Shown: positions 47,495-63,676, counted from the stretch's first letter. The stretch is 64,000 nt of DNA from an uncultured Anaerolineales bacterium (GCA_937952305.1 CALFZO010000006.1:136558-200557); one strand, 5' to 3'. Notes: a model not told the origin generated them from the letters alone. A program made the numbers and translations.

Positions 47495-50029
47495 TCAGCC
47501 CGCGTCCGGGGCCAGCAGCGCCACCGCCTGGCTGCGCACATCGTCCAGGATCAGCTCAAGGTGGTGCCCCGGCCGAAAATCGGCGACGTCGATCAGGCGC
47601 AGGCAGGCGGCCACCGCCGGGCTGGCCGCCACCCGGTCCAGCAGGCGGTTGGGCGTGCCGGAGAAAAAATCCTGGTTGAAGACTGACTGCGGATCGTCCA
47701 GGCAGACGGCCACCGGGTAGATCTGCGCCTCCATCAGGTCCTGAAAGAAGTGCGTGCCCAGGGACGGCTCCGGCGCCGGCCCATGGCCGCGCCCGGCCAG
47801 CTCCACCAGGGCGCCGGCGTTGTAGATGTCGGCGTAGCTCACGTACACGCCCAGCTCCGGGTTGGTGGTGCCCCAGCGGCCCGGCCCCACCAGGATGTAC
47901 GCCTTCTCGCCCAAAGTAAGGTTGAGCTGCGCGATGGCCTTGGTCAGCTCGGCGCGCCCGGCCGCCGTGGGCAGGACCGAGTAGGCCTCGGGCGCCACGT
48001 AGACCACGTGGCGGATGTGCGGCAGGTAGCCTTGCGGCACCACAAAGCGCGTAGACAGGATGACGCGCTCCGGCGCCAGGTCGCGTGGCAGGGCGGCCAC
48101 GGCCGGCAGCGGCAGCGTGCTTTGCGGCCGGCATTGCAGCAGCGTCAGCGCCACCTGCGGCCGCCCGCCGTCGGCGTCCACCACGCGCACCGTGAACTCC
48201 AGGTCCACGGCCACGTGGTAATGCTCCTCCAACACCCGCAGCATCTGGGCCAGCAGGGCCGCGAAGGAGGTCCGGCGCACCAGGCCATCGAAGGTCAGCA
48301 CCAGGCCGGGGATGTCGCCGGCCAGCAGCGTGCCGCGCGGCGTCGTGAAGAAGCCGTCCGCCTCCAGTTGCGCCAGGTAGCGCAGCGCCGGGTAGTCCGG
48401 CGTCAGGACCTCGGCCACCGGCCGGGTGACCAGCGTGTTGGCCTCCAGGTCGATCAGGTCCACCCAGTGCTGTGAGTAGAAGCGCAGAGCCTCCGGCGAG
48501 TCGTCGGGCTGGAGGGTGGGGTGGCTGAGCGCGATCAGGTGCGGGTAGTCGTTGCCGACGCGGTCGACGGCGCGCGTCCCCAGCCCCCACACCAGCCGCA
48601 CAAAGCCGGCCTCGGGCCGGATGCGCGGCGACCAGCGATACAGGTTGCGGCTGAAGGCCACGCCCGCCCCGAACGGCAGGCAATAACGCCCAAAGCGCTC
48701 GCCCTGCACCACCTGGATCAGGATGGCCATGCGCTCGTCGTAGTCTTGCAGCTTCTTGCTGCGCCGGTAGAGCAGGGCCTCCGGCTTGAGCGTGCTGGCG
48801 TACGTTTGGGCAATGGCCTGCGTCAGCGCCCGCAGGTTCTCGTCCGGCGTCCCCTGGTTGGGACAGAAGAAGCTGTCGTACTTGCCGGCGAAAGAGGTGC
48901 CGAAGTTGTCCTCTAACTGGCTGGACGAGCGCACGATCAGCGGCTGCGCGCCCACGCGCGCCAGCATCGCCTCCAGCTCGCGCACGATCTCGGGCGGGAA
49001 CCCGCCGGCCTGGAACTCGGCCTGGATCTGCGGATACTCCGCCCGGATCTGGTCCTCCGGCTTGTATTTCTGATTGTTCCAGTGCATCAGCCCGTTCATG
49101 GCCATGAACAGGTAGATCAGGTCCGAGCCCAGATAGTAGGACTCGGGCACGCGCACACTGGCGCGCACCGCCGGGTCGGCCGCCGTCTGCAGGATGCGCG
49201 CCGCCAGCCGGAGGCCGGCCGCCTTGCCGCCGATGCGGCCTTGGCCGATCCGGTGCGCGTAGATCTCGGCCAGGTCCGCCAGGGTCAGCCACTCCTTGGC
49301 CACGTTGATGTAGGCGAGTTGATCGCTGATCAGGCGCCGGATCAGGGCGACCTTGATATCGCGCCGGCAGTGCGCCAGGAACTCCTGCTCGCGCGCCGGC
49401 AGCTTCTCGATCGCTTGGGCTTGCGCGAACAGCACGCTCTCCGGGATCAGCTCCGGGTCGGAAAAAGCCAGCAGGTCCTGGACCGCCTGGTCCAGGTCAC
49501 GCGGCGTGGCGCGCTCGCCGCCGGCCCGCTGCCAGATCGGCGCCGAGTGGATCACGCGGCGATGGATCACCAGGCCGTGGCCGCGGCATTGCTGGATGTC
49601 GTCGTCATCCACCATCTGCAGATCAAGCGTAAAGCAGGCCGGGCGTGCGTTGCGGCAGCCATAGCGGCGCCGGCGCTCCGCCAGCCCCGCTTCCAGCGTC
49701 TCCCCCAGGCCGTGCAGGGCCGCGCTCTTGCGTTCCACCCACGCGATCAGGTTGATGCCGCCGCGCCGGCTGCCATCGCCCAGGCCGGCCGCGCCGTCCT
49801 CGCCGGTGCTGCGGTAGATGGCCTTGACGGTCGGGTCCAGCCGGCCGACGAGCTCGCCGACCTGCCGGACCAGGCTGTCACACAGCGCGCCGCAGACGTC
49901 GCAGCGCCCCTCGCGCAGGGCTTGCTGCGCCTGCGGGGCGTTGCCGCCGAACTTGGCCGCCGCGCAATCGGCGACGGCCTGGTCCAGCAGTTGGTCGGCC
50001 AACGCGGGGTCTAGTTCCACGGCGGACAT
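47495..50029 (-). CDS. PPDK_N (PEP/pyruvate-binding, ATP-grasp) domain protein without phosphohistidine swivel or TIM domains, paralog A
   Basis: Motifs are IGGKAAGLRLAARIL and PLIVRSSSQLEDNFGTSFAGKYDSFF, and LLQCRPQS ends the ATP-grasp. The conserved C-terminal GPGRWGTTNPELGV...EPSLGTHFFQDL region is of unknown function. ATG 50029 (AAGGGTGGG upstream) is preferred over GTG 50038. Confidence 0.8.
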   Translation of the reverse strand: MSAVELDPALADQLLDQAVADCAAAKFGGNAPQAQQALREGRCDVCGALCDSLVRQVGELVGRLDPTVKAIYRSTGEDGAAGLGDGSRRGGINLIAWVERKSAALHGLGETLEAGLAERRRRYGCRNARPACFTLDLQMVDDDDIQQCRGHGLVIHRRVIHSAPIWQRAGGERATPRDLDQAVQDLLAFSDPELIPESVLFAQAQAIEKLPAREQEFLAHCRRDIKVALIRRLISDQLAYINVAKEWLTLADLAEIYAHRIGQGRIGGKAAGLRLAARILQTAADPAVRASVRVPESYYLGSDLIYLFMAMNGLMHWNNQKYKPEDQIRAEYPQIQAEFQAGGFPPEIVRELEAMLARVGAQPLIVRSSSQLEDNFGTSFAGKYDSFFCPNQGTPDENLRALTQAIAQTYASTLKPEALLYRRSKKLQDYDERMAILIQVVQGERFGRYCLPFGAGVAFSRNLYRWSPRIRPEAGFVRLVWGLGTRAVDRVGNDYPHLIALSHPTLQPDDSPEALRFYSQHWVDLIDLEANTLVTRPVAEVLTPDYPALRYLAQLEADGFFTTPRGTLLAGDIPGLVLTFDGLVRRTSFAALLAQMLRVLEEHYHVAVDLEFTVRVVDADGGRPQVALTLLQCRPQSTLPLPAVAALPRDLAPERVILSTRFVVPQGYLPHIRHVVYVAPEAYSVLPTAAGRAELTKAIAQLNLTLGEKAYILVGPGRWGTTNPELGVYVSYADIYNAGALVELAGRGHGPAPEPSLGTHFFQDLMEAQIYPVAVCLDDPQSVFNQDFFSGTPNRLLDRVAASPAVAACLRLIDVADFRPGHHLELILDDVRSQAVALLAPDAG

Positions 50030-50068: not shown

Positions 50069-50096
50069 CGCTCAACTGAGCGCGCTCAGTTGAGCG
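50069..50096. repeat. 28-bp perfect palindrome spanning the stop codon of the GltS-FMN-like gene
   Basis: CGCTCAACTGAGCG (50069-50082) is immediately followed by CGCTCAGTTGAGCG (50083-50096). Confidence 0.9.
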
Positions 50097-51732
50097 ACGG
50101 CAGCGGCGGCTTGCGGCGCGTCTTGGGCCGCGCGCCGCGCGATCCGGACCGGCGCTCAGACGCGGTGTGCCCGTTGCCCTGGCGCCCCACCGGGGCCAGC
50201 GCCTCCCAGATGGGCAGCGGCCGCTCGTAGCCCGCCAGCTTGAGGCCGGTCAGCGCGGCCGTGTTCATGTCCAGCGCGCGCAGATCCTCGGTGGACAGGT
50301 CGGCGATGGCGCGATGGCCGGAGAGCATGGTCAGGATCTTGACCTCCTCCGCGCAGGCATGGATGAAGTTGGCCAGCTTCTGCCCGGCCGCCAGCGGGTC
50401 CAGGCGGGCGCGCAGTTCGGGCTTCTGGCTGGTGATGCCGTACGGGCAGTTGCCCTTGTGGCAGGCGTAGCAGGCGCGGCAGCCCATGGCGATCTCGGCC
50501 GCGCTGCCGAAACCAACCGCGTCGGCGCCCATGGCCAGGGCCTTGAAGGCGTCCAGGCCGTTGCGCAGGCCGCCCAGCGCGATCAGCTTGACCTGGCGGT
50601 GCACGCCATAGTCCTTCAGCGCCTGGACCGCCGGCGGGAGACAGGCGATGGTGGGGATGCCCACGCCCTGGGTGACGATGTCCGGCGAGCAGCCGGTGCC
50701 GCCCACCAGGCCGTCGATGCTGATGGCGTCGGCGCCGGCTTCGATGCAGGCGGCCACGTCCGCGTACGGGCGCGACGGCCCGAGCTTGAACAGGATCGGC
50801 ACGCGATAATCGGTGACGTCGCGCAGGAACGCCACCATGCGGCGCATGTCCTCCGGCGTCTGCACGTCATAGTAACGGCACGGGCTGAGCGCGTCCGAGC
50901 CCACCGGCACGCCGCGCACGCGTGAGACGGCCTCCGTGACCTTGGAGCCGAGCAGGTGGCCGCCCATGCCGGGTTTAGCGCCCTGGCCGATCTTGACCTC
51001 GACCGCGTCGCCGGCGTTGACGTAGTCCGCCGAGACGCCCCACCGGCCGGTGGACCACTGGATGACGAGGTAGCCGCCCGGGTCCCACTGCTTGTGGGCG
51101 CGGGCCTCATCGGCGTAACCGCGCGCCAGCCACGCCTCGGCCGGCACCAGGCCGCCCTCGCCGGTGTTGGTGGCGATGCCGGTCAGGGCCGCGCCGATGG
51201 CCAGGGCCTGCTTGGCCTCCTGGCTCAGCGCGCCGAACGACATGGCCGCCCACACAAACGGCAGCTTGAGCCGCAGCGGCTGGGAGCAAGTGTCCGCGCC
51301 GATGATCACTTCCAGGTCGCACTCCTCGCGGTACTTGTCGCGCGGCGCCGCGCTGGCGATCTGGCTGGGCACAACCGTGATCGTATCGAAGTTGGGCGTC
51401 GGGCCTTGCGTGCCAAAGCCGCGCAGCAGGTACTCGCCGGTCTGGGCTTTGGCGTGGACTTCTTCCACGGCGGCCAGCGTCCACGGGTAGCGGCTGAGAT
51501 ACTCCGACTCGGCCGGGTTGATGCGGATGGCGTCGGCCGGGCAGAACTCGGCGCAGATCCGGCAGCCCACGCAGGCGTTGTAGTTCTGGATGTGCATCGC
51601 GCCGCTGGCGAGGTCAAGCGCGTACACGCCGTGCGGGCAGACTTCGGCGCAGGTGGCGCACTTGCCCGGCATCTGCGCGTTGAGGCAGGCTTCTTGGTTA
51701 ACACTGATACAAAAGGCGCCTATGACAGCCAT
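50086..51732 (-). CDS. Glutamate-synthase FMN-domain (GltB domain 2-like) protein with N-terminal 2x[4Fe-4S] ferredoxin domain
   Basis: 548 aa with N-terminal CATCAEVCP and CVGCRICAEFCP. GltS motifs are TNTGEGG, KIGQGAKPGMGGHLLG, SIDGLVGGTGCSP, ALGGLRNGLDAFKALAMGADAVGFG and CRACYACHKGNCPYGITSQ. SD GAGGAGG precedes the start. Confidence 0.85.
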   Translation of the reverse strand: MAVIGAFCISVNQEACLNAQMPGKCATCAEVCPHGVYALDLASGAMHIQNYNACVGCRICAEFCPADAIRINPAESEYLSRYPWTLAAVEEVHAKAQTGEYLLRGFGTQGPTPNFDTITVVPSQIASAAPRDKYREECDLEVIIGADTCSQPLRLKLPFVWAAMSFGALSQEAKQALAIGAALTGIATNTGEGGLVPAEAWLARGYADEARAHKQWDPGGYLVIQWSTGRWGVSADYVNAGDAVEVKIGQGAKPGMGGHLLGSKVTEAVSRVRGVPVGSDALSPCRYYDVQTPEDMRRMVAFLRDVTDYRVPILFKLGPSRPYADVAACIEAGADAISIDGLVGGTGCSPDIVTQGVGIPTIACLPPAVQALKDYGVHRQVKLIALGGLRNGLDAFKALAMGADAVGFGSAAEIAMGCRACYACHKGNCPYGITSQKPELRARLDPLAAGQKLANFIHACAEEVKILTMLSGHRAIADLSTEDLRALDMNTAALTGLKLAGYERPLPIWEALAPVGRQGNGHTASERRSGSRGARPKTRRKPPLPSLN

Positions 51733-51742
51733 GGCGTCCTCC

Positions 51743-52393
51743 TCAGTTGTAGAACGGCTTGGGCGACGCGGCCACGACCTTCTGGAAGCGGGCCGGGTCG
51801 GCCGTCAGGCCGTATTGCTCGAAGTAGCCGCGCAGCTTGGCCAGGTCGGCCTCGGTCAGCGGCTCCACGCGCGTGTTGTGGCCGAGGCTCCGCCACGCGC
51901 CGCCGATGTAGACGGTGCCGCGGATCAGGTAGTTGGCGAAGTTGGCGCCGGCGTCCCCGACGATCACCAGATCACCCTTGAGCATGTAGGTGCCGGCCTC
52001 GTCGCCGACGTCGCCAGCCACCAGGATGACGGCGCCCTTGTTCATGGTCGCGGTGAAGTCGCCGGCGTCGCCGCGCACGACGACGGTGCCGCCATAGCAG
52101 TACTGGCCGGCGCCGTAGCCGGCGTCGCCGTCCACGATGACGGTGCCGGCCGTCATGTTGTCGGCCAGATACTGGCCGGCGTTGCGCTGCACGTGCAGGG
52201 TCGCCCCGGCGTTCAGCACGCCCAGGTAGTCGCCGGCGTCGCCCGCGATCTCCACCTGGCCCTGCTTCAACCCGGCCGCCAGGCCGTGCACGTGGGCGGC
52301 GTGCCTCACCGTCACCGGTTCTCCGTTCAGGGAAGCGCGCAGCGCCTGGTTGACGGCGCGCAGGTCTTTGTGTTTGGCGTCAATGGTCTTCAT
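51743..52393 (-). CDS. GXGXG-motif protein (GltB domain 3 / FwdC-like)
   Basis: 216 aa with repeated GDAG/GxGxG turns (IAGDAGDYLG, VDGDAGYGAG, VRGDAGDFTA, VAGDVGDEAG, IVGDAGANFA). SD GGGAGGTGG precedes the start. Confidence 0.85.
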   Translation of the reverse strand: MKTIDAKHKDLRAVNQALRASLNGEPVTVRHAAHVHGLAAGLKQGQVEIAGDAGDYLGVLNAGATLHVQRNAGQYLADNMTAGTVIVDGDAGYGAGQYCYGGTVVVRGDAGDFTATMNKGAVILVAGDVGDEAGTYMLKGDLVIVGDAGANFANYLIRGTVYIGGAWRSLGHNTRVEPLTEADLAKLRGYFEQYGLTADPARFQKVVAASPKPFYN

Positions 52394-52408
52394 CGTCCAC
52401 CTCCCGCC

Positions 52409-53575
52409 TCAACAGCCCGTGCAGCCGTTGCGCGCCCGGGTTGGCGCGCCGGCTCGGCTGGGGGTGCGGTACAGGCGCGTGAACTGCTGGATGGCTTCAC
52501 CACGCTTAAGCGGGTCGGCCAGCGCATCCAGGGCCAGCACGCGCCAATCCTGGAAGGCCTCCGCCCGCGCGCGCCGGTCCTTGTCCCCGGCCGCCGCCGC
52601 CAGCGCGGCTTCGTCCACGTCCCGGCCGGTCTCCAGCAGCCCCATCTGCACCGCGTTGCGCACGAAGACGTCGCCGGCGCGGGTGCGGATAAGCAGGCTG
52701 GCCGCGTCCGCGTTGGCGTCCAGCGTCCCCAGCGCCAGGTCGGCGGATTCGCCCAGGTAGTCATCGCAGCTCGCGCAGCCGGCGCGCGTGTAGGCTTCGG
52801 CCTCCTCGCGCGGGAGGGTGCGGACGCTGCCGTCCCACAGGTGCGCGTTGAGCCAGCGCCGGTCCGGCGAGACCTCCAGCCGCTTCACCTGCTGGCGCGG
52901 CACGCCCAGGCGCTGCACCAACACGTCCTCGATCAACTCCGGGCGGTAGACGCCGGTGCAGAACAGCGCCACCGTCAGGCGCACGGCGTCCTGATACGGC
53001 TTCAGGCGCGGATTGGTGGAAGCCTTGAGCTTGCGGATGGCCTGCGCCGCGCAGGGCGGGCCGACGATGGCGATGTCCTTCAGGCCGCGCTCGAAGACGG
53101 CTTCATTCAGCGCATCCAGCACCGGCGCCCACAGATAGTGCAGGCCCACGCCCTCGGCGATCGCCTCCACCGTGGAGACGACCTCAGTTACGGGCCGCAG
53201 GTCCCACGGGTCCAGGTCCAGCCGGACGACGCCGTCCAGCAGGCCGGCGCTCAGCCCGGCCACCAGGAGGCTGCGCGCGACGTCGTTGGGCGTCCCGCCG
53301 CGCACCGGTCCGCGCGCGCGCGCCGAGACGGTCACCTGGGCCTCCAGCGGCGCCCAGCGCTCCAGGCGCGGGCAGACCGCTTCGCAGAAGTGCTGGCAGA
53401 ACGAGCAGCTGTCCAGCGGGCCTTTGGTGTAGCCGACGGTCTTCAGACGCGCCGCCAGCACGGGATGCTCGCCGCCGTTCCATTGCAGCACCTGCTTGGA
53501 GCAGGCCGCCACGCACAGGCCGCAGCCCGCGCAGCGCTCCAGCGCCCAGACCTCCTTCTCTAATCGTGTCGCCAT
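52409..53575 (-). CDS. FrhB/FdhB-family (coenzyme F420 hydrogenase/dehydrogenase beta-subunit-like) FeS flavoprotein
   Basis: ATG at 53575 with CAGGAGGTGAAAGC upstream. 388 aa with N-terminal Cys motifs CAGCGLCVAAC...CSFCQHFCEAVCP, then IAIVGPPCAAQAIRKL, LFCTGVY and CASCDDYLGESADLALG. The listed ORF 52409-53992 has a 139-codon Arg/Pro junk extension overlapping the upstream gene. Confidence 0.8.
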   Translation of the reverse strand: MATRLEKEVWALERCAGCGLCVAACSKQVLQWNGGEHPVLAARLKTVGYTKGPLDSCSFCQHFCEAVCPRLERWAPLEAQVTVSARARGPVRGGTPNDVARSLLVAGLSAGLLDGVVRLDLDPWDLRPVTEVVSTVEAIAEGVGLHYLWAPVLDALNEAVFERGLKDIAIVGPPCAAQAIRKLKASTNPRLKPYQDAVRLTVALFCTGVYRPELIEDVLVQRLGVPRQQVKRLEVSPDRRWLNAHLWDGSVRTLPREEAEAYTRAGCASCDDYLGESADLALGTLDANADAASLLIRTRAGDVFVRNAVQMGLLETGRDVDEAALAAAAGDKDRRARAEAFQDWRVLALDALADPLKRGEAIQQFTRLYRTPSRAGAPTRARNGCTGC

Positions 53576-53631
53576 GCTTTCACCTCCTGAAGGTGGCGGT
53601 TGATCGGATTGTTGCGAATCGGCCTCAATGT

Positions 53632-55701
53632 TCACGGCCGCCGGTTGGGCGCACCCACCTCGGCCGCCAATTGGCTGGCGGCTGTGGCGAAGCCGCGCCC
53701 GTCGTCGCCGGACAGCGCCAGCCAGCGCAGCCGGCGCGGGTCGACGCCGCGTTCGGCCAGCTGGGCCTGCAACGCCTGGACGCGCTCGTGGGCGAAGCGG
53801 TTGCCCTGGCCGTGATGACATTCGCCGGCCGGGCAGGCCGCCACCAGCACGCCGGCGGCGCCGTTGAGGAACGCCCAGAGCACGTGGTCGCCGCTGAGGC
53901 GGGCCGAACAGCCCAGGCGGATCAGGCGGGTGCTGGCCGGGTACGGCCAGCCGCGCGCCCCGGCAATACCGGCGGCGGCGTCGCCGCTCCACTCGCAGCC
54001 GAAGACCACGACGCGCGGCGCTCCCTCGGCCGTCGCCAGGGCGGCCTCAATCTGCGCGAAGAGCGCGGCGTCCTCGGCGCCGGGCAGCGTCAGCGCGCGC
54101 ACCGGGCAGGCGGCCACGCAGCTGCCGCAGCCCGTGCAGCGGCGCCCGTCCACGCGCACGAGTGAGAGCGGCCCCGGCTGGGCGCTCAGGCTGAGCGCGG
54201 CCTGCGGGCAGGCCTGAACGCATTGCGCGCAGCCCGTGCATAGCGCCTCGTCCAAGGCGGGGATGGGCGCGTCCAATTGCAGGCGGCCCTGGCCGAGGTA
54301 GCGCAGGACGCGCGCGCCGGTGAGATAAGCCTGGAACTCGACTTCGGACACGCTGGCCGGCTGATGCAGGCCGCCCAGCACGAACAGGCCGTCGTCGGCG
54401 TAGCGGCCGGGGCGCAGGCGGAAGCGCCGCTCGATGAGAAAGCCGTCGGCGTCCCGCGGCAGGCCCAGCACGGCGGCCAGCCGGTCCGCGCCCGCCGCCG
54501 GCACCCACGGCAGCGCCAGCACCAATCGGTCGAAGGGCAGCTCGATCAGGTCGCGCGTGGCCGGCAGCGGCACGCTCACCGTCCGCGCGTCGATCACGGG
54601 CGGATGCGCCGGGTCGTAACGCACGAAGGCGACTCCGGCCGCCTGGGCGGCGGCCAGGTCTTGCCAGCCGGCCTCGGCGTCCTCGCCAAGCACCAGGTCC
54701 CGGAACAGCAGCGTCACCTCCGTCGCCGGGTTGAGCTCTTTCACGCGCGCGGCCTGGCGCAGACCGGCGCGGCAGCACACGCGTGAGCAGCGGCCGCCTG
54801 GCCCACGCTCGGCGCACAACTGGATGACGACGTGCTGAAACGGGCAGCCGCCCGCCTCGGCCAGGGCCGCCAGCTCCATCTCAAATTCGGCCTGGGTCCG
54901 GACGCGGGCGCGGGGATACCAGCGGGTGGCGCCCAGCGGCTGCGGCGCGGCGCCCAGCGCGGCCACGATCGCGCCGGCCGGCGTCACCGCCTGGACACCG
55001 GCCTGCTCCCAGGTCACCTGGTATTCGCCGGGCGCGCCGGCGACGGCGATGACCTGGGCGTTGAGCCGGGTCGTGATGAGCGGATGGGCGCGAACGGCCG
55101 CGATGCGGGCCGCGATCTGGTCCTGATCGGCGGCCTCGAAGCTGGGCGAGAGCCCTCCCAGGGCGCCGTCCGGGTCGATCACGGTGACGGGCGTCCCGCC
55201 CTCGGCCAGCGTCAGCGCCACGGTGAGGGCGCCCAGCCCGCCGCCGATGACGACGGCCGCCTTCGTCAGCGGATACGTGCGCGGCGCCGCCGGCGTCAGG
55301 GCCGCCAGACGCGCCGCGCCCATGGCGATCAGGTCGACGGCCTTGGCCTGCGCGGCCTCCGGCTCAGCGGCATGCACGCACGCGCATTGTTCGCGCACGT
55401 CCGCGATGGCGACGGCGTCGGCCGGCAAACCAGCCGCCTGGACCGTGGCGCGGAAGAGCGGCTCCACCAGGCGCGGCGCACAGGCGGCCACCAGCACGCG
55501 GTCCAGGTGCTCGGCCTGGATGGCGGCCTGCAGACGCGCGCGGCCATCCGGCCCGCAGGCGCAGGTCTCGCACGTCACGTGGGCGACGCCAGGCAGATCA
55601 GCGGCGGCGCGCGCCAGCCTCTCCGGCTCCAGCGGCCTCGGCCGGCCGAGCGTGCCGCCGCAATCACAGACGACGATCCCCAGGCGCGGTGAGTCGCTCA
55701 T
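53632..55701 (-). CDS. HdrA-like FAD/FeS protein with C-terminally fused MvhD (methyl-viologen-reducing hydrogenase delta) domain
   Basis: The ATG at 55701 overlaps the upstream stop (ATGA). 689 aa. The HdrA N-domain pattern reads GIVVCDCGG...VLVAACAPRLVEPLF...IADVREQCACVH. FAD fold AAVVIGGGLGALTVALTLAEGG, CSRVCC and the ferredoxin pair CTGCAQCVQACP / CTGCGSCVAACP follow. The MvhD pattern is VVVFGCEWSGD...RLGCSARL...VLVAACPAGECHHGQGN. Confidence 0.8.
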   Translation of the reverse strand: MSDSPRLGIVVCDCGGTLGRPRPLEPERLARAAADLPGVAHVTCETCACGPDGRARLQAAIQAEHLDRVLVAACAPRLVEPLFRATVQAAGLPADAVAIADVREQCACVHAAEPEAAQAKAVDLIAMGAARLAALTPAAPRTYPLTKAAVVIGGGLGALTVALTLAEGGTPVTVIDPDGALGGLSPSFEAADQDQIAARIAAVRAHPLITTRLNAQVIAVAGAPGEYQVTWEQAGVQAVTPAGAIVAALGAAPQPLGATRWYPRARVRTQAEFEMELAALAEAGGCPFQHVVIQLCAERGPGGRCSRVCCRAGLRQAARVKELNPATEVTLLFRDLVLGEDAEAGWQDLAAAQAAGVAFVRYDPAHPPVIDARTVSVPLPATRDLIELPFDRLVLALPWVPAAGADRLAAVLGLPRDADGFLIERRFRLRPGRYADDGLFVLGGLHQPASVSEVEFQAYLTGARVLRYLGQGRLQLDAPIPALDEALCTGCAQCVQACPQAALSLSAQPGPLSLVRVDGRRCTGCGSCVAACPVRALTLPGAEDAALFAQIEAALATAEGAPRVVVFGCEWSGDAAAGIAGARGWPYPASTRLIRLGCSARLSGDHVLWAFLNGAAGVLVAACPAGECHHGQGNRFAHERVQALQAQLAERGVDPRRLRWLALSGDDGRGFATAASQLAAEVGAPNRRP

Positions 55702-56435: not shown

Positions 56436-56444
56436 GGCGGGGCC

Positions 56445-58346
56445 TCAATTGACCGTGACCGCGTCGAACTTGCACACGCTCTGGCACAGGCCGCAGCGCG
56501 TGCAGACCGCCGGGTCGATGGTGTGGATCTGCTGCTTAGCGCCGTGGATGGCGCCGGCCGGGCAGTTGCGCAGGCAGACCTGACAACCCGAGCACCGCTC
56601 CGGCTGGATGGCGTACGTGATCAGGCCTTTGCAGACCTTGGCCGGGCAGCGCTTGTGCAAGATGTGCGCGTCATACTCGGCGCGGAAGTAACGCAGGGTC
56701 GAGAGGACCGGATTAGGCGCGGTCTGGCCCAGGCCGCACAGCGACGAGCGCTTGATCATCTCGCCCAGCTCCAGCAGGTAATCCACGTCGCCGGGCTGCC
56801 CGTGGCCGGCGCAGATGCGCTCCAGCGTCGCCAGCATGGCCTGTGTGCCCACGCGGCAGGGCACGCACTTGCCGCACGACTCCTCCTGCGTGAACTGCAT
56901 GAAGTAGCGGGCGAAGTCCACCATGCAGGTGTCCTCGTCCGCCACCACCAGGCCGCCCGAGCCGACGATGGCGCCGAGCGCGGTCAGCGATTCATAGTCG
57001 ATGGACGTGTCCAGGTGCTCGGCCGGGATACAGCCGCCGGACGGCCCGCCGATCTGGGCGGCCTTGAAGGCCTTGCCGCCGGGGATGCCGCCGCCGATGT
57101 CGAAGATCAGGCGGCGCAGCGAGATGCCCAGCGGCACCTCCACCAGGCCGGTGTTGTTGATCTTGCCGACCACCGAGAAGATCAGCGTGCCCTTGCTGGT
57201 GGGCGTGCCCAACTGCGCGTACCAGTCCGCGCCGTTGGCCAGGATGAGCGGCACCGCCGCCCAACTCTTGACATTGTTGATGTTGGTCGGTTTGCCCCAC
57301 AGGCCGGCCTCGGCCGGATAAGGCGGGCGCGGGCGCGGCTCGCCCACGCGGCCTTCGATGGACGCCATCAGCGCGGTCTCCTCGCCGCAGACAAAAGCGC
57401 CGCTGCCCAGCCGCACGCTGACCCGAAAATCGAAGCCGGAGCCCAGGATGTTCTCGCCCAACAGGCCGCGCGCCTCGGCCTGGGCGATGGCGGCGCGCAG
57501 GTGCTTGACGGCCAGCGGGTATTCGTTGCGGATGTAGACGAAGCCGCGCCGCGCCCCGATGGCGTACGCGCCGATCAGCATCCCCTCCAGCACGCGGTGG
57601 GGGTTGCCCTCCATGATCGAGCGGTCCATGTAGGCGCCCGGGTCGCCCTCGTCCGCGTTGCAGATCACGTACTTCACGTCGCCGGGCTGACGCCGGCACA
57701 GGTCCCACTTCTGCCCGGTGGGGAAGCCGGCGCCGCCGCGCCCGCGCAGCCCGGAGGCCTTGACTTCGGCGATGACGGCCGCGGGCGTCAGGGCCAGCGC
57801 CTTGGCCAGCGCGGCGTAGCCGCCGGCGGCCACGTAGTCGGCCAGGCTGAGCGGATCGAGCGTGCCGTTCAGGTCCAGCACCAGGCGGTGCTGATGTTTA
57901 TAGAACGGGACCTCGGTCTCATACGGCAGCCGGGCGCCGGACTGCGGCTCGGTGTACAGCAGGCGGTCGAGCACGCGGCCGCCGTCCACAGTGGCCGCCG
58001 CGATCTCGGCGGCATCCTCCGGCTTGACGCGCGTGTACATCAAGCGCTGCGGATGGAGCACCACCAGCGGCCCGCGCTCACAGAACCCGTGGCAGCCGGT
58101 GACGCGCACCGGGCGCCCGTCGCCGCGCGCCGCCAGCTCACGCTGCAGCGCCTGGCAGACGCGCTCGCTGCCGTAGACGCGGCAGCCGGTGCCGCCGCAG
58201 ACCGTGATGGCCGGCTGGTTGGGCTGATCCGCGGCGGTCAGGGCCGCACGCCAATCCGCCAGATCGGCAAGCTGGTGCAGCTGTGGATCGCGGCCATTGG
58301 CCGGCGCTGGCGCGGCTTCCAGCGGGGAGGGCGGGGTCTTAAGCAT
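56445..58346 (-). CDS. NuoF/HydB-like NADH-binding FMN FeS flavoprotein with extra N-terminal thioredoxin-like [2Fe-2S] and C-terminal 2x[4Fe-4S] domains
   Basis: 633 aa with GLRGRGGAGFPTGQKW, NADEGDPGAYMDR and ESCGKCVPCRVG. The N-terminus carries VCGGTGC...CHGFCERGP. The C-terminus carries CSGCQVCLRNCP and CTRCGLCQSVC. Confidence 0.9.
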   Translation of the reverse strand: MLKTPPSPLEAAPAPANGRDPQLHQLADLADWRAALTAADQPNQPAITVCGGTGCRVYGSERVCQALQRELAARGDGRPVRVTGCHGFCERGPLVVLHPQRLMYTRVKPEDAAEIAAATVDGGRVLDRLLYTEPQSGARLPYETEVPFYKHQHRLVLDLNGTLDPLSLADYVAAGGYAALAKALALTPAAVIAEVKASGLRGRGGAGFPTGQKWDLCRRQPGDVKYVICNADEGDPGAYMDRSIMEGNPHRVLEGMLIGAYAIGARRGFVYIRNEYPLAVKHLRAAIAQAEARGLLGENILGSGFDFRVSVRLGSGAFVCGEETALMASIEGRVGEPRPRPPYPAEAGLWGKPTNINNVKSWAAVPLILANGADWYAQLGTPTSKGTLIFSVVGKINNTGLVEVPLGISLRRLIFDIGGGIPGGKAFKAAQIGGPSGGCIPAEHLDTSIDYESLTALGAIVGSGGLVVADEDTCMVDFARYFMQFTQEESCGKCVPCRVGTQAMLATLERICAGHGQPGDVDYLLELGEMIKRSSLCGLGQTAPNPVLSTLRYFRAEYDAHILHKRCPAKVCKGLITYAIQPERCSGCQVCLRNCPAGAIHGAKQQIHTIDPAVCTRCGLCQSVCKFDAVTVN

Positions 58347-58884
58347 GCTGCGCCTCCGCCGCCTGGCGCGTCAGGCGCTTCCAGAGCATTTCGGCCTTGG
58401 GCGCCGTCATCTGCCCGGAGTACTCGCCGTCGGCGACGACGATGGGGCCGAGCGCACAGGCGCCCAGGCAGTTGACGGTCTCGAGCGTGAACTCGCGGTC
58501 GCGCGTGGTGGCGCCGGGGCTGACCCCCAGCCGCGTCGCCAGCCGCTCCAGCACCCGCGGGCTGCCGCGCACGTGGCAGGCCGTGCCCATGCACACCTGC
58601 AGGCAGTGCCGGCCTTTTGGCTTGAGGCTGAAGGCGTTATAGAACGTGGCGACGGCGTAGACGTCGGCGAGCGGGAGGTGGAAGCGCTCGCCGGCCAGGA
58701 TCAGGGCCGCGCGCGGCAGGTAGCGGCAGCGCGCCTGAACCGCCTCCAGCGCGGCGATGACCGAGCCTTCGCCGCGCGCTTCCTGGTCGATGAGCTGGTA
58801 GAGGTCGCCGACCGGCAATAGCATAGCGGGCTGCTCCAGGGGCGACAGCGCCGCGCCGTCGACGCGTCCGGCCAGCCGGTTCAA
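58339..58884 (-). CDS. NuoE/HydC-like thioredoxin-fold [2Fe-2S] protein
   Basis: VATFYNAFSLKPKGRHCLQVCMGTACHVRG...VNCLGACALGP. The start is ambiguous (TTG 58884 or ATG 58824). The stop overlaps the NuoF-like start by 8 nt. Confidence 0.85.
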   Translation of the reverse strand: MNRLAGRVDGAALSPLEQPAMLLPVGDLYQLIDQEARGEGSVIAALEAVQARCRYLPRAALILAGERFHLPLADVYAVATFYNAFSLKPKGRHCLQVCMGTACHVRGSPRVLERLATRLGVSPGATTRDREFTLETVNCLGACALGPIVVADGEYSGQMTAPKAEMLWKRLTRQAAEAQHA

Positions 58885-59077: not shown

Positions 59078-59785
<708 letters not shown>

Positions 59786-59804: not shown

Positions 59805-61175
59805 TCACGCCGCCGGGCGCGGCAGAGAAAAGTACAGCGTAGTGCCCTGCCCGGTCTTGCTCTCAACCCAGATCCGGCCGCCGTGCGCCTCGACGATGGC
59901 GCGCGCGATCGGCAGCCCCAGGCCCGCGCCCGGCACGTACGGGCTGCCCGACGACGCGGCGCGGAAGTATTTCTCAAACAGCGGGATCAGGTCCTCCGGC
60001 GCAATGCCGACACCCTGATCGGCCAGGCTGACCACCACGTCGCGCGGCCGCACCTCGCCGCGCACCAGGATCAGGCCGCCGTTGGGCGAGTACTTCACGG
60101 CGTTGTCGAGCAGGTTGCGCAGCACCTGGGTGATCCCGCGCGCGTCGCATTCCAGCACCGGGAAGCCGGGCGGAAAATCGGTCAGCAGGCGATGGCGCTG
60201 CGTCAGGCGCTGGGTCTCGTCCACCAACTGCCGCACCAGGGCGGGCAGGTCCAGCGGCCGGCGCTCGACACGGATCTGGTGGACCTCCAGCAGCACCGAG
60301 TCTAGGATCTCGCGGATCAGGCCCTGCATGTTGTCGCACTCGGCCTCGATCAGGCGCAGGAACTCGGCATGCTTGGCGGCGCTCCAGTCGACCTCTTTGA
60401 GCATGAGCGCGGTGGCGTACCCCTTGATCGCCGTCAGCGGCATGCGCAGCTCGTGGGAGAGGGTGGCCACCAGCTCCCGACGCAGACGCTCGGCTTCGCG
60501 CGCCACGCGCACGGCGTCGGCCTTGGCCGCCAGGCGGGCTTGGCCGATGGCCAGCGCGAGCAGGTCGGCCAGCGTCTGCACAAAGGGCACATCGGCGGGG
60601 CGGAAAGCCGTCGGCCGGGTCCAGGTCTCCAGCACCAACACGCCGAGCTTCTCGCCGTTCATGACGAGCGGCGCGGCCACAGCGCAGCGCGGCGGCGCGT
60701 CCGCGTCCGGGCCGAGGGCCAGGGCCCGCGCCATCGCCACGCGGTTGGCGCAGCGCATGTTGGCCACCGCGGCGGCGGCCTCGGCGGGCGTCGCCAGCAG
60801 GCGGGCCTGGCCGCTGTCGAAGACCTGGCCCGTGATCGATTCGCCCGCGCGCAGGCCCACCGTCTTGAGCAGCGTCAGGTCATAGCCGAAGGCCGCTGCC
60901 GCCCGGAACAGGCCGGCCTCGTGGTCCCACAGCATCACGGCGCCCGTCTCGGCCGGCTCCAGGACATCGACCACGGCGGCCATGACCGCCTGGAGCAGCT
61001 CCGGCAGTTCCAGCCGCGAGGTCAGGATCTTGGCGACCGCGGTCAGCGCCTGCAGTTCGCGCGTCAGGCGCGCCACCGGGAGGTCGTCGCTCAGCGCGCT
61101 CCCAGGCGTTACCGTCTGCATCGCCGGCGGAAATCTCATAATGTTGGCGAATTTCGGACGATATAGACGAAACAA
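59805..61175 (-). CDS. Cytoplasmic GAF-domain sensor histidine kinase
   Basis: No TM segment is present. The GAF-like region (LLQAVMAAVVDVL...GESITGQVF...GVLVLE) is followed by H-box LSHELRMPLTAIKGY and the HATPase N/G boxes (LRNLLDNAVKYSP, DQGVGI, GAGLGLPIA). The start is uncertain (TTG 61175, ATG 61139 or ATG 61121). Confidence 0.85.
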   Translation of the reverse strand: MFRLYRPKFANIMRFPPAMQTVTPGSALSDDLPVARLTRELQALTAVAKILTSRLELPELLQAVMAAVVDVLEPAETGAVMLWDHEAGLFRAAAAFGYDLTLLKTVGLRAGESITGQVFDSGQARLLATPAEAAAAVANMRCANRVAMARALALGPDADAPPRCAVAAPLVMNGEKLGVLVLETWTRPTAFRPADVPFVQTLADLLALAIGQARLAAKADAVRVAREAERLRRELVATLSHELRMPLTAIKGYATALMLKEVDWSAAKHAEFLRLIEAECDNMQGLIREILDSVLLEVHQIRVERRPLDLPALVRQLVDETQRLTQRHRLLTDFPPGFPVLECDARGITQVLRNLLDNAVKYSPNGGLILVRGEVRPRDVVVSLADQGVGIAPEDLIPLFEKYFRAASSGSPYVPGAGLGLPIARAIVEAHGGRIWVESKTGQGTTLYFSLPRPAA

Positions 61176-61330: not shown

Positions 61331-61336
61331 CCGGCC

Positions 61337-63676
61337 ATGACTGAGGCCTACAACGAGCTCCCGAAAATCCTGTCGCTGTATCTGCAGATCACGCAGTATC
61401 CGATCTTGGCGCACCAGATCCGGCGGCGGATGCGCGAGGAGCTGTACCGGCGCGGCGTGATCACGCCAGCCCGGCTGGAGCAGGAGGCGCGGGACAAGGC
61501 CGTGGTCTCGCAGCTGCGCGAGGGCCTGACCGATCCGTTCGGCGAAGAGGACTCGGCCGCCTGGGAGCAGCGCCTGCAGCAGATCCGCGACCACCTGACC
61601 GACTTCTACTTCGCGTACAACCTGCCGCTCGAGCTGTTCCATCGCATCGTGGAGGAGCTGCTGGCCGGCCGGCGCGGCCCAGAGCCGGAGAAAGCGCCGT
61701 CCTGGGACGAGATCACGCTGACTTTCAACCCAGAGCTGGCGCCCGTGGACCTGCTCATCCGCAAGATCGAGCAGTACACCAACCTGCCGGCCGAGGAGCA
61801 GCAGCACGTCCGGCACCACATCGAGGAGATGAGCGTCGTCCTGATCAAGGCCCTGATCAGCGACCAGCTCAGCTTTGTGGGGGTGGCCAAGAAGTGGCTG
61901 GAGGCCAGCGACTTTCACTTCATCCTCAGCCGGCGCATCGGCAGCGGCAAAATCGGCGGCAAGGCGGCCGGCATGCTGCTGGCCTGGAAGATCCTGCAGA
62001 AGGCGACGCCGGAGCTGGCGCCGCAGATCCAGGTGCCGCGCTCGTTCTTCATCGGCGCCGACGTCTTCTACGACTACCTGGCCCTCAACAAGGTCGAGTA
62101 CATCAACCAGAAGTACAAGCCGGCCGACCAGATCCGGGATGAGTACCCGCAGATCCGGGCCGAGTACGAGCAGGGCCGCTTCCCGGAAGAAATCGCCGAC
62201 GCCCTGCGCGACATCCTGCGCCAGGTGGGCGACCGGCCGCTGATCGTGCGCTCGTCCAGCCTGCTGGAGGACAACTTCGGCACCTCCTTCGCCGGCAAGT
62301 ACGACAGCTTCTTCTGCCCCAACCAGGGCACGCTCAAGGAGAACCTGCGCGACCTGACGCTGGCCATCCGCCGCATCTACGCCAGCGTCTACAGCCCGGA
62401 CGCCCTGATCTACCGCCGCCGCATGGGCCTGTTGGACTACGACGAGCGCATGGCCATCCTGCTCCAGGAAGTGCAGGGCGACCGCTACCAGGACTACTTC
62501 TTCCCGACGCTGGCGGGCGTGGCCCTCAGCCGCAGTCCGATCGTGTGGAGCCCGCGCCTGCGCCGCGAAGAGGGCTTCGTGCGGCTGGTGCTCGGGCTGG
62601 GAACGCGGGCCGTGGAGCGCGTCGGCGAGGACTACCCGCGCCTGCTCTTCCTCAGCCACCCGCAGCTGCGCCCGGAGAACACGCCGACCGCCGTCGCGCA
62701 TTACTCGCAGCGCTTCCTGGACGTGATCGACCTGGAGGCCAACCGGCTGGTGACGCTGCCGGTGCAAGAGGTGCTGGACGTGGACTTCCGGCCGCTGCGC
62801 TGGGTGGCCTCGCTCCAGGAGGACGACGCGCTGCTGCCGCTGCGCAGCCTGGGGCCGCGCGTCACCCCGGACCGGCTGGTGCTCACCTTCGATACGCTGC
62901 TCCAGCGCACCGACTTCGTGCCGCTGGTGAAGAGCGCCCTGAGCACCCTGGCCAGACACTACGGTTTTCCGGTGGACGTGGAGTTCGCGGCCGAGATCGA
63001 GCCCACCCTCACCGGGGGCCGGCCCAATGTCGCCTTCTACCTGTTGCAGTGCCGGCCGCAGAGCACCGGGTCGCGCGGCGAAAACATCCGCCCGGTGCCG
63101 ACCAACATCCCGGCCGGCGACCGGTTGTTTGCGACCTCGCGCATGGTGCCCCAGGGCCAGGTGCTGGGGGTGACCCACCTGGTTTACGTCCAGCCGGAAG
63201 CCTATGACCGCGCCGACGCGCGCGGACGCCAGGCGATCGCGCGCCTGATTGGCCACCTCAACAAGGCCCTGGAGGGCCGGACCTTCCTGCTCATCGGGCC
63301 GGGGCGCTGGGGCTCCTCCAACCCGCAGCTGGGCGTGCCGGTGACGTACGCCGACATCTACAACACTCGCGCCCTGGTGGAGATCGCCTTCGGGCGCGGC
63401 GACGCGGCGCCCGAACCGTCTTACGGCACGCACTTCTTCCAGGACCTGGTGGAGACCAACATCTTCCCGCTGGCCCTCTACCCGGACGAACCCGAGGACC
63501 TGCTCAACCGCGCCTTCCTGGACCAGGCCACCAACCGGCTGGCGGAGGTGCTGTCCGGCCAGGCCGCCTTCACCGACGAGGTCCGCGTGATCCATCTCCC
63601 GGCCGAGCTGAACGGCCGCCAGCTCAACCTGCTGATGGACGGTGAACGAGCGCTGGCCTACTTCGTGGACCACTGA
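61337..63676 (+). CDS. PPDK_N (PEP/pyruvate-binding, ATP-grasp) domain protein without phosphohistidine swivel or TIM domains, paralog B
   Basis: 779 aa with IGGKAAGMLLAWKIL, PLIVRSSSLLEDNFGTSFAGKYDSFF, LLQCRPQS and GPGRWGSSNPQLGV...EPSYGTHFFQDL. It is collinear with paralog A from about residue 150 onward. Confidence 0.8.
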   Translation: MTEAYNELPKILSLYLQITQYPILAHQIRRRMREELYRRGVITPARLEQEARDKAVVSQLREGLTDPFGEEDSAAWEQRLQQIRDHLTDFYFAYNLPLELFHRIVEELLAGRRGPEPEKAPSWDEITLTFNPELAPVDLLIRKIEQYTNLPAEEQQHVRHHIEEMSVVLIKALISDQLSFVGVAKKWLEASDFHFILSRRIGSGKIGGKAAGMLLAWKILQKATPELAPQIQVPRSFFIGADVFYDYLALNKVEYINQKYKPADQIRDEYPQIRAEYEQGRFPEEIADALRDILRQVGDRPLIVRSSSLLEDNFGTSFAGKYDSFFCPNQGTLKENLRDLTLAIRRIYASVYSPDALIYRRRMGLLDYDERMAILLQEVQGDRYQDYFFPTLAGVALSRSPIVWSPRLRREEGFVRLVLGLGTRAVERVGEDYPRLLFLSHPQLRPENTPTAVAHYSQRFLDVIDLEANRLVTLPVQEVLDVDFRPLRWVASLQEDDALLPLRSLGPRVTPDRLVLTFDTLLQRTDFVPLVKSALSTLARHYGFPVDVEFAAEIEPTLTGGRPNVAFYLLQCRPQSTGSRGENIRPVPTNIPAGDRLFATSRMVPQGQVLGVTHLVYVQPEAYDRADARGRQAIARLIGHLNKALEGRTFLLIGPGRWGSSNPQLGVPVTYADIYNTRALVEIAFGRGDAAPEPSYGTHFFQDLVETNIFPLALYPDEPEDLLNRAFLDQATNRLAEVLSGQAAFTDEVRVIHLPAELNGRQLNLLMDGERALAYFVDH

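Follow-up and report, generated by a model that had tools for sequence, protein, structure and literature searches.

Paralogous PPDK_N-family proteins with a family-specific C-terminal domain beside glutamate-metabolism genes in an uncultured Anaerolineales bacterium

Glutamate dehydrogenase (GDH) and glutamate synthase stand where carbon and nitrogen metabolism meet, and the known bacterial nitrogen controls act mostly at glutamine synthetase and PII. Phospho- and nucleotidyl-transfer are used in this setting by the PTS-Ntr enzyme I (GAF-EI) and by GlnE/GlnD, which tune nitrogen assimilation to 2-oxoglutarate and glutamine. Phosphotransfer from ATP is also the business of enzymes built on the PPDK_N-type ATP-grasp domain (PF01326; motifs GGK, RSS..ED, FAG, D.EF/W and LQ.RP). 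In PEP synthase and PPDK this N-terminal domain is combined with a swivel domain and a TIM barrel; in rifampin phosphotransferase (RPH; 5hv3, 5fbs) and PigC/RedH-type proteins it is followed by a His-bearing domain, which in RPH is C-terminal; and in the split dikinases (phenylphosphate synthase, HpeHI, AcvAB) it lies on a chain without a swivel, these systems relying on an adjacent subunit that bears the swivel histidine. To our knowledge, the characterised PPDK_N enzymes (PEP synthase, PPDK, rifampin phosphotransferase, PigC, glucan water dikinase) all phosphorylate small molecules.

Here we analyze two PPDK_N proteins, A and B, encoded in a window of 64,000 nucleotides from an uncultured Anaerolineales bacterium. 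Both share the ATP-grasp domain and its motifs with PEP synthase and PPDK, but they carry a ~195-aa alpha/beta domain in place of the swivel and TIM barrel, and an extra N-terminal module. The order of an ATP-grasp domain followed by a His-bearing C-terminal domain is that of rifampin phosphotransferase and PigC; however, none of the tests run identified the C-terminal domain as a swivel fold, a rifampin-binding-type domain is absent, and the genomic context is glutamate metabolism and a two-component system rather than resistance or pigment clusters. As in the split dikinases there is no swivel on the chain, but the family has its own conserved C-terminal domain and no recurrent swivel partner beside it. 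The likeness to PTS-Ntr enzyme I and GlnE/GlnD is functional only, lying in the association of the family with a GAF kinase and in its receiver and NTP_transf_2 fusions; there is no sequence homology beyond the generic nucleotidyltransferase fold of some fused forms, and the proposed targets are GDH or GltS instead of glutamine synthetase or PII. A literature search returned no published characterisation of the PPDK_N + GPGRWG/GTH family or of the HdrA/MvhD/GltS/NuoF complex that accompanies it here.

Layout of the locus and its relatives

Pfam annotation orders the minus-strand run as histidine kinase (HK), response regulator (RR), NuoE-like, NuoF-like, Fer2/Fer4, HdrA-MvhD, FrhB-like, GXGXG, GltS-FMN and A (Table 1), so that A is the last gene of a co-directional run, as the first-pass annotation had described it. 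Convergent GDH and GatB genes bound the run on the A side, and Pfam detected no glutamine amidotransferase gene in the redox cluster. On the other side, 161 nt separate B from the divergently oriented HK gene, and the two family genes are indeed mutually inverted, with ~11 kb between them. The further proposal that the pair brackets the redox locus stands only as a description of inverted flanking: A is part of the operon and B of the flanking arrangement, so the two do not enclose a unit. In the conserved GatB-GDH-B-DnaN arrangement B is the resident copy; A comes last in an HK/OmpR-headed two-component operon that lies between GDH and B.

Table 1. Features of the locus, with positions counted from the first nucleotide of the window
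Feature	Position	Strand	Basis or remarks
Glutamate dehydrogenase (GDH)	46121..47410	+	Pfam; convergent with A
13-bp G+C-rich hairpin + T-run	47439..47477	.	Between convergent GDH and A genes
Paralog A (A-type PPDK_N-family protein)	47495..50029	-	844 aa; ORF, translation, PPDK_N match
C-terminal domain of A (GPGRWG, S-L-G-T-H-FFQDL)	47498..48097	-	His760 codon 47750-47752
N-terminal module of A (aa 1-186)	49472..50029	-	Invariant CxxC (C43, C46), Cx6C (C125, C132)
Redox genes between regulator and A	50086..58884	-	Pfam
GltS-FMN with Fer4	50086-51732	-	Pfam
GXGXG	51743-52393	-	Pfam
FrhB-like	52409-53992	-	Pfam
HdrA-MvhD fusion	53632-55899	-	Pfam
Fer2/Fer4	55698-56435	-	Pfam
NuoF-like	56445-58346	-	Pfam
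NuoE-like	58339-58884	-	Pfam
OmpR-type response regulator	59078..59785	-	Likely start MDKPRILIVDDD
GAF-HisKA-HATPase histidine kinase, first operon gene	59805..61175	-	Pfam; divergent from B
Paralog B (standard ~780 aa family form)	61337..63676	+	779 aa, ATG start
N-terminal helical module of B (aa 1-126)	61337..61714	+	No cysteines; AF2 helical; hhalign boundary
PPDK_N ATP-grasp domain of B (aa 205-582)	61949..63082	+	Pfam, Foldseek, motif conservation
C-terminal alpha/beta domain of B (aa 582-779)	63080..63673	+	His699 codon 63431-63433
dnaN start, running off window end	63864..64000	+	Translation matches DnaN of L170

The slot between GDH and B is, in relatives, empty, occupied by the kinase/regulator operon alone, or filled by the full operon. 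GDH lies directly ahead of the B orthologue in loci L001-L003, L008 and L170, the last of which shows the GatB-GDH-B-DnaN order with the slot empty; L171 has the same four genes plus a small protein, RR and HK divergent from B; and the window, L004 and L082 hold the full operon. The first-pass annotation had suggested surveying whether the family accompanies the redox genes in other genomes, and the distribution does not look random, with A-type orthologues ending the same HK-RR-NuoEF-HdrA/MvhD-FrhB-GXGXG-GltS operon in five loci (L004, L005, L007, L082, L084). The redox gene order is identical in L004, L007, L082, L084 and L174. More generally, A-type genes are always last in HK-RR operons, behind either a GltS-like complex or a second type of GDH with Nfn-like genes, and homologues of the HK (56-59% identical) adjoin family genes in L006, L087, L103 and L171.

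Paralogy and domain architecture

A and B are anciently diverged paralogs within one large, uncharacterised protein family. Their paralogy, which the first-pass annotation had put at 55-65% core identity by eye, is borne out by a common PPDK_N and C-terminal domain and by BLASTP (50% identity, 66% positives, 648 aa, E = 0), the measured identity being slightly lower than the visual estimate. The genes are 69% identical over 1715 nt, with a longest exact common run of 29 nt. The motifs quoted from the two proteins were all recovered in both translations, and the antisense shadow ORFs at 48786-49073 and 62074-62376 do both read PWLGQKKLSYLPAKEVPKLSS, because the conserved LEDNFGTSFAGKYDSFFCPNQG stretch is mirrored in a genome of ~70% G+C with GC3 >0.9. 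The block does not differ in GC3 from its surroundings; a recent horizontal insertion of the block was considered and rejected, composition giving it no support. For A we place the start at the ATG at 50029, behind a purine-rich stretch, an alternative being the GTG at 50038 (ORF 47495-50038, minus strand). The two copies represent separate subfamilies, each with its own orthologues: those of A are 59-75% identical and hold the same operon position, and those of B are 65-80% identical and lie directly behind GDH, ahead of or near dnaN.

In both A and B the core begins with a short helical linker, continues with a PPDK_N-type ATP-grasp domain in which every nucleotide-binding motif is present, and closes with a C-terminal domain specific to the family. 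PPDK_N is the only Pfam domain in either protein (A residues 268-642, E 6.9e-52; B residues 205-582, E 1.1e-49), and the motifs GGKAAG, VRSSSLLEDNFGTSFAGKYDS, VDVEFA and LLQCRPQS of B are invariant in 54 sequences. The best Foldseek match of the ATP-grasp domain is rifampin phosphotransferase (5hv3, E 1e-13), followed among others by HpeI (9goj, E 1.5e-11) and PPDK (1dik); the match to rifampin phosphotransferase covers the ATP-grasp part alone (~400 columns, TM 0.3). Pfam at E <= 0.1 detected neither PEP-utilizers nor PEP-utilizers_C domains in A or B, nor was there a Pfam match to the PEP/pyruvate-binding TIM barrel (PF02896), both proteins ending after the ~195-aa C-terminal domain. NCBIfam equivalogs for A and B all lie far under their cut-offs, whether PEP synthase/PPDK models (14-58 bits, cut-offs 456-1063), RIF_Ptrans_rph (38-44, cut-off 999) or PigC (40-47, cut-off 1300). 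The architecture originally described, with an intact PPDK_N, no canonical swivel, no TIM barrel and a C-terminal domain common to both proteins, thus holds.

The C-terminal domain lies downstream of the ATP-grasp domain, in the place where PEP synthase, PPDK and rifampin phosphotransferase carry their remaining domains, including the swivel. Over its ~195 aa the GPGRWG motif is invariant and G-T-H, which opens a predicted helix, nearly so; the histidine is conserved in 141 of the 142 cluster representatives, Asp replacing it in the other. An AF2 model of the domain of B (pLDDT 91, pTM 0.90) is alpha/beta, with GPGRWG behind a strand and S-Y-G-T-H699 at a helix start according to its secondary structure. 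The domain matches 1613 cluster representatives at 50% identity. The Pfam run on this region that the first-pass annotation had recommended yielded no normal swivel His domain: neither whole A and B at E <= 0.1 (PF00391, GGxTSHAA) nor 36 C-terminal domains at E <= 10 gave a swivel match, the latter returning scattered single matches only. A profile of the domain found only chance ribosomal-protein matches among PDB sequences, hhalign against a thin three-sequence swivel alignment gave a probability of 0.05%, and the best Foldseek hit was not significant (E 9e-3), no swivel-containing structure being among the 50 matches listed. Lacking a relative by Pfam, PDB sequence, hhalign or Foldseek, the domain is therefore not a canonical swivel domain. 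We also rejected GTH-helix-IxP as a cryptic swivel motif, which has no profile or fold support.

By hhalign, A and B align only from A187/B127 on, and their N-terminal modules are unrelated. That of A is an autonomous four-cysteine module. Its four cysteines are invariant across 22 A-type sequences, and stand-alone homologues of 170-200 aa sit in GDH-module-NfnB-NfnA operons; the module is also a separate gene in GltS-like operons, and L174 has the A-type gene split in two, the N-module gene preceding the PPDK_N core gene. A distant homologue of this module is also encoded in L103 and L171, as the small protein that closes the HK-RR operon. The module of B is the usual one for the ~780-aa form, tblastn placing it N-terminally in the family gene at 150 loci.

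Family distribution and genomic neighbors

A and B both carry the core of a family, PPDK_N plus a C-terminal domain with GPGRWG and G[TS]HFF, that is named PEP/pyruvate-binding domain-containing protein at NCBI. It comprises at least 7,700-7,990 relatives at 90% clustering and at least 1,600 clusters at 50% identity. Cultured carriers include Bellilinea caldifistulae (L011) and Thermanaerothrix daxensis (L057). A metagenome scan with a short ~590-aa query returned mostly ~780-aa forms closer to A and B than to the query, and short forms thus contribute few loci to the sample. PADLOC defence models gave no match for A, B or the short form. The fused nucleotidyltransferase of P0281 has a weak PADLOC match to PDC-S09.

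GDH lies <=300 bp from the family gene in 26 of 159 loci and inside the locus in 49, as counted by tblastn over loci that include redundant contigs from the same populations; about two thirds of the loci have neither GDH nor a GltS gene nearby. GDH or glutamate-synthase genes are found beside family members in six of seven deep clades, the cores of which are >55% divergent, GDH itself being present in six of the seven. An Ignavibacteria locus has GDH 25 bp ahead of the family gene; in L141 the family gene, its start overlapping by 10 nt, follows GltS-FMN and precedes a GXGXG-GltD fusion; and in L160 GDH is followed by the family gene and then by a Glu_synthase-domain protein. More distant members likewise adjoin GDH or GltS genes. 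Within Anaerolineae, dnaN is the commonest neighbor (58 of about 170 loci) compared with GDH (41 loci), and much of the B-type linkage to GDH may therefore be inherited regional synteny. A deoxynucleoside kinase gene lies directly behind the family gene in 19-21 loci. Family members also include a receiver-domain fusion (L148) and nucleotidyltransferase (NTP_transf_2) fusions, and a Metallophos phosphoesterase gene adjoins the family gene in some loci.

Candidate functions

The repeated siting of family genes beside genes for making or breaking glutamate hints at a control step in nitrogen metabolism, and the receiver and nucleotidyltransferase fusions, the adjacent Metallophos phosphoesterase and the two-component operons point to a signalling flavour of the family. 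From this we infer, tentatively and with slightly less than even confidence, that A and B may be ATP-driven phosphotransfer regulators of glutamate-forming oxidoreductases. ATP held on the ATP-grasp domain would serve to phosphorylate the C-terminal domain at its conserved histidine, making that domain swivel-like in function though structurally unrelated to the swivel domain. The phosphoryl group would then pass to a partner oxidoreductase that forms or oxidises glutamate, or the phosphorylation state would control that partner. Partner choice would rest with the N-terminal module, the standard form acting with GDH and the four-cysteine form with GltS-like or GDH-Nfn-like redox complexes, and the proteins would act as energy-dependent regulators of the 2-oxoglutarate/glutamate node under two-component control.

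A broader form of this proposal, which we regard as rather doubtful, would make the family a new ATP-driven phosphotransfer class spread over Chloroflexota, Ignavibacteria and other phyla, with a novel phosphohistidine carrier, swappable adaptors and a GAF kinase/OmpR layer. The adaptors would be the N-terminal modules, docking the core onto GDH or onto flavin/iron-sulfur glutamate-synthase-like complexes, and the control layer would act on the 2-oxoglutarate/glutamate node.

Alternatively, A and B could be small-molecule dikinases or kinases that phosphorylate, or activate in a ligase-like manner, a metabolite of the 2-oxoglutarate/glutamate/ammonia node, thereby powering reductive amination; the substrate site would then be the N-terminal or C-terminal domain. 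The precedent of the characterised PPDK_N enzymes is of this kind, as are the nearest structures, rifampin phosphotransferase and HpeI, and the L141 gene, lodged between GltS subunits with overlapping start/stop, looks no less like an enzyme subunit than like a regulator. The GltS-like cluster has no glutamine amidotransferase gene, so an ATP-coupled step is not absurd. We nonetheless consider this function unlikely: a recognisable substrate domain is lacking, the fusions, the two-component operons and the adjoining phosphoesterase speak for signalling, the N-terminal module of A occurs without the PPDK_N core in GDH-Nfn operons, and the same core is paired with both GDH and GltS, which run in opposite physiological directions.

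The family might instead have no functional tie to glutamate at all, its neighborhoods reflecting dnaN-region synteny and chance and its role being an unrelated one such as nucleotide or energy homeostasis. The primacy of dnaN as a neighbor, the deoxynucleoside kinase gene and the absence of GDH from most loci are all consistent with such a role. Against it, adjacency to GDH or GltS recurs across deep clades, with gene order and orientation varying, and extends to at least one further phylum; 16% of loci show direct adjacency, compared with a roughly estimated <1% for a single-copy gene in a few-Mb genome; and A-type genes are found only in two-component, GltS or GDH operons. We accordingly deem coincidental synteny distinctly improbable.

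It is highly improbable that A and B are the ATP-binding subunits of split dikinases served by a separate swivel-His subunit, as in phenylphosphate synthase or HpeHI, for a swivel-motif scan of 172 loci and the window returned three genes only (PPDK, PtsI and a PtsI-like fusion), the recurrent neighbor clusters identified include no swivel-type partner, and the proteins have their own conserved C-terminal domain with a nearly invariant histidine; the missing canonical swivel and the Foldseek match to the ATP-binding subunit HpeI are what speak for it. Least credible, and in effect dismissed, is the earlier suggestion that the inverted paralogs delimit a module prone to recombination or inversion, which could draw on their mutual inversion around ~11 kb and on the variable content between GDH and B, but which conflicts with the age of the copies (69% nucleotide identity, no exact run beyond 29 nt), their unrelated N-termini and separate orthologue sets, a GC3 like that of the neighbours, and the same orientation, with no inversion of the 50-61 kb segment, in the GDH-junction loci L004, L005 and L082; the interval varies because the two-component operon, of which A is a part and not a border, is present, absent or extended.

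The layout of the window can be described as a slot, between GDH and a resident family gene, whose two-component operon content varies. Even if the glutamate linkage were synteny alone, the analysis would still have defined a new domain and a pair of paralogs with swapped domains, and the current PEP/pyruvate-binding annotation mislabels the family. The recurrent ties to GDH, GltS-like and Nfn-like enzymes, together with two-component systems, suggest that the family provides either an ATP-dependent regulatory step or a new enzyme at the glutamate node.

Paralogous genes and their setting in the window

The window has a G+C content of ~70% with GC3 >0.9, and therefore carries many long antisense open reading frames, despite which A and B, the two PPDK_N paralogs, are real genes. 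BLASTP aligns A194-838 with B131-774 at 50% identity (E = 0), bearing out the paralogy proposed in the first-pass annotation, and the identical antisense peptide described there is present in both genes, where it mirrors the most conserved ATP-grasp motif. At the DNA level the genes share 69% identity across 1715 nt, with a longest common exact run of 29 nt.

Features of the window locus, in window positions
Feature	Position	Strand	Remarks
RecF-like (SMC_N) gene	6294-7688		~56 kb from dnaN
Ser/Thr kinase fusion gene	15752-17053		Ser/Thr protein kinase domain with C-terminal LuxR/GerE DNA-binding domain
GatB	44406-46040	+	with GDH, on the convergent side of A
Glutamate dehydrogenase (GDH)	46121-47410	+	convergent with A
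Hairpin	47439-47477		strong, 13-bp, G+C-rich, then TTTTTCTTTC T-run; between GDH and A
A	47495-50038	-	best start ATG at 50029, giving 844 aa
Palindrome	50071-50094		perfect, 24 nt, CTCAACTGAGCGCGCTCAGTTGAG; overlaps stop codon (50086-50088) of the glutamate-synthase FMN-domain (GltS-FMN) gene; 42 nt 5' of A ATG
Redox genes	50086-58884		
A-ending operon, first part	61.2 kb down to 47.5 kb	-	GAF-HisKA-HATPase kinase first, OmpR-type regulator second
A-ending operon, after regulator		-	NuoE-like, NuoF-like, Fer2/Fer4, HdrA-MvhD fusion, FrhB-like, in order
A-ending operon, last part		-	GXGXG, GltS FMN-domain protein with ferredoxin domain, A, in order
TAGAAT hexamer	61320-61339		8 nt 5' of B ATG
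B	61337-63676	+	779 aa
dnaN	63864-64000		after B, to window end

The kinase gene and B are divergent and lie 161 nt apart. The hairpin is likely the terminator of GDH and perhaps serves both the GDH and A transcripts. No T-run follows the palindrome, which could form an mRNA hairpin setting A expression relative to the upstream genes or constitute a protein-binding site. There is no obvious ribosome-binding site between the TAGAAT hexamer and the B start codon, and the mRNA from which B is translated might be leaderless or have a very short leader. The A-ending operon, redox genes included, contains no glutamine amidotransferase gene; the same redox set occurs in relatives (L004, L007, L082, L084 and L174, among the loci L001-L176 fetched for comparison). 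The set appears to encode an undescribed complex of glutamate-synthase-like type, linked to NADH/ferredoxin and possibly electron-bifurcating; a literature search for this complex found no description.

Domain architecture of the family

Pfam assigns PPDK_N alone to both proteins (A 268-642, B 205-582), leaving ~195 C-terminal and ~200-260 N-terminal residues without assignment, and NCBIfam models for PEP synthase, PPDK, rifampin phosphotransferase and PigC match the ATP-grasp region only, far under their cut-offs. The ATP-grasp motifs GGKAAG, VRSSS.LEDNFGTSFAGKY, GLGTRAV, D.EF and LLQCRPQS are invariant in a 54-sequence alignment. The AlphaFold model of B is confident (pLDDT 84.9), and its ATP-grasp part matches rifampin phosphotransferase 5hv3 (E 1e-13), HpeI 9goj and PPDK 1dik. 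Searches with A and with B each yielded at least 8000 candidates; the two are members of a very large family, and their best matches are Anaerolineales/Chloroflexi proteins named solely 'PEP/pyruvate-binding domain-containing protein'. A literature search on this family, defined by PPDK_N and a C-terminal domain with GPGRWG and GTH motifs (C-domain), found no paper.

Modelled alone, the C-domain adopts an alpha/beta structure (pLDDT 91, pTM 0.90) with GPGRWG following a strand and S-x-G-T-H at a helix start. No relative of it was detected by Pfam at E <= 10 on 36 family members, by profile search of PDB sequences or by Foldseek against PDB and BFVD (best E 9e-3, TM 0.28), and hhalign against the swivel domains of PPDK, PtsI and a PtsI-like fusion from the fetched loci gave a probability of 0.05%. 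The earlier description of these proteins as PPDK_N enzymes sharing a C-terminal domain and devoid of a swivel domain thus holds, 'swivel-less' being correct in the sense of homology. By itself, the C-domain matches 1613 cluster representatives (50% identity), in host proteins of about 590, 780, 850, 1050 and 1500 aa. The G[TS]H histidine is present in 141 of the 142 representatives covering the site, the remaining one having Asp, and the domain offers this conserved histidine in a predicted phosphate-friendly setting.

A and B belong to different subfamilies with different N-terminal modules, profile-profile comparison aligning the two types only from A187/B127 onwards. Residues 1-126 of B are the ordinary N-terminus of the ~780-aa family, found at that position of the family gene in 150 fetched loci. 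Residues 1-186 of A, with four invariant cysteines (CxxC and Cx6C), are an autonomous module: stand-alone proteins of 170-200 aa share 43-45% identity with it and keep the cysteines. A search with this segment retrieved at least 11 proteins, all short stand-alone forms, a lower bound because full-length A-type orthologues sharing the module (46-68% identity) are absent from the matches, apparently lost at the word-based candidate step. In L173, L175 and L176 the stand-alone module is flanked by a GDH of a second type on one side and by NfnB-like and NfnA/GltD-like genes on the other. L174 carries the two parts of A as separate genes, the module being encoded between GltS-FMN and a PPDK_N core gene of 661 aa that lies 3 nt from it. 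The kinase-regulator operon of L103, L171 and L172 closes with a distant homologue (182-190 aa) that lacks the cysteines.

Construction of the locus and neighbourhoods in relatives

A B orthologue of 80% identity (L170) lies in a GatB-GDH-B-DnaN array with nothing inserted, and L001-L003 and L008 are similar. In L171 and L172 (B 73%), two GDH genes are followed by a set of small-protein, response-regulator and histidine-kinase genes that is divergent from B-DnaN, and the long A-ending operon, convergent on GDH, occurs in the window, L004/L005 (A 75%) and L082. The resident gene is B; the two-component operon that carries A as its terminal cargo fills the variable GDH-to-B slot. From this series it follows that the pair does not bracket the locus, as had been proposed. 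The related suggestion that the paralogs are recombination borders is highly improbable: at 69% nucleotide identity and with unrelated 5' thirds they would, in our assessment, recombine homologously only poorly, the related loci that show the GDH junction (L004, L005 and L082) include no inverted variant, and composition gives no sign of recent import.

A-type orthologues (59-75% identity) are always last in operons that begin with this pair of GAF kinase and OmpR regulator genes, following NuoEF/HdrA-MvhD/FrhB/GXGXG/GltS genes in L004, L005, L007, L082 and L084, and the second GDH type in L006 and L087, with Nfn-like genes next in L006. This second GDH is ~31% identical to that of the window (compared in L006 and L087). 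Its operons with NfnB-like and NfnA/GltD-like genes (L173 6549-10982, L175 5361-9790, L006 8693-14887) contain, between GDH and the Nfn-like genes, the four-cysteine module, either on its own or within a full A-type protein, a layout suggestive of a GDH-Nfn unit for electron bifurcation that includes a small accessory protein.

Clustering of neighbours without prior labels over ~170 loci gave dnaN (58), GDH (41), histidine kinases (38), deoxynucleoside kinase (21) and GatB (20) as the commonest. These counts place the family gene within a conserved dnaN-region arrangement in Anaerolineae, by itself weak evidence of function; in many such loci the gene is directly beside dnaN, often with deoxynucleoside kinase downstream. 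Distant members provide stronger evidence than this arrangement. GDH lies within 3.5 kb in six of the seven clades with cores >55% different. In an Ignavibacteria locus it is 25 bp upstream of a 597-aa form. A short form and a long nucleotidyltransferase-fused form stand together with GDH and a Metallophos phosphoesterase in L088 and L148, and in L148 a receiver-domain fusion also follows GDH. In L160 the family gene stands between GDH and a Glu_synthase-domain protein; in L141 it comes after GltS-FMN, with a 10-nt overlap at its start, and before a GXGXG-GltD fusion; in L146 it is accompanied by HdrA-like and MvhD genes and by a convergent GDH. Among the 159 loci with usable flanks, some of them redundant, GDH lies within 300 bp in 26 and anywhere in the locus in 49.

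Distant members include short forms paired with long forms that are fused to an NTP_transf_2 nucleotidyltransferase (L148 1916-13467, L088 6274-13410, L168 1342-8226), with a 995-aa receiver-domain fusion and a 1650-aa two-unit fusion, all adjoining GDH. Family genes of ~780 aa form tandem pairs in five loci (L050 and L086, from Promineifilaceae/Promineifilum genomes, L056, and L114 and L115, from unclassified metagenome contigs; at about 10001-14700 or 5400-10100), adjoined by a HIT-domain gene and a DHH-CBS-PolyA-polymerase-type (CCA-adding-like) gene, with no GDH nearby.

Proposed function

In this family the ATP-grasp domain is intact, the C-domain is conserved and has a histidine that is nearly invariant, and the N-modules are exchangeable; its genes occur in two-component, GDH, GltS-like and Nfn-like contexts and in receiver and nucleotidyltransferase fusions. 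By analogy with PEP synthase, PPDK and rifampin phosphotransferase, the C-domain histidine would be phosphorylated in an ATP-dependent manner, the phosphoryl group would be transferred to, or used to control, a glutamate-forming oxidoreductase, and the N-module would pick that partner. We hold this reading tentatively. The first-pass proposal that A and B regulate the complex is plausible, and should be broadened to GDH and GltS generally.

The proteins could instead be small-molecule kinases or ligases at the glutamate node, which we consider unlikely. Synteny only, with no functional tie to the glutamate enzymes, would fit the dnaN-region arrangement better than the distant members, and is somewhat less probable again. 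A split dikinase with a missing swivel partner is very doubtful, since no swivel-type partner is among the recurrent neighbour clusters that were identified. A and B resemble split dikinases such as HpeI only in being without a swivel domain.

A and B possess one of the three domains defining PEP-utilising dikinases and fail the other two. They are not to be classed as either PEP synthase or PPDK. Their likeness to rifampin phosphotransferase is confined to the ATP-grasp domain and to the presence of a C-terminal domain that bears a histidine. The nearest functional analogies, which are not homologies, are PTS-Ntr enzyme I and GlnE/GlnD. Proteins of the A/B type are PPDK_N enzymes whose C-terminal domain is new and whose N-terminal adaptors can be swapped, and they may act through histidine phosphorylation on a glutamate-forming oxidoreductase that the N-module would select.
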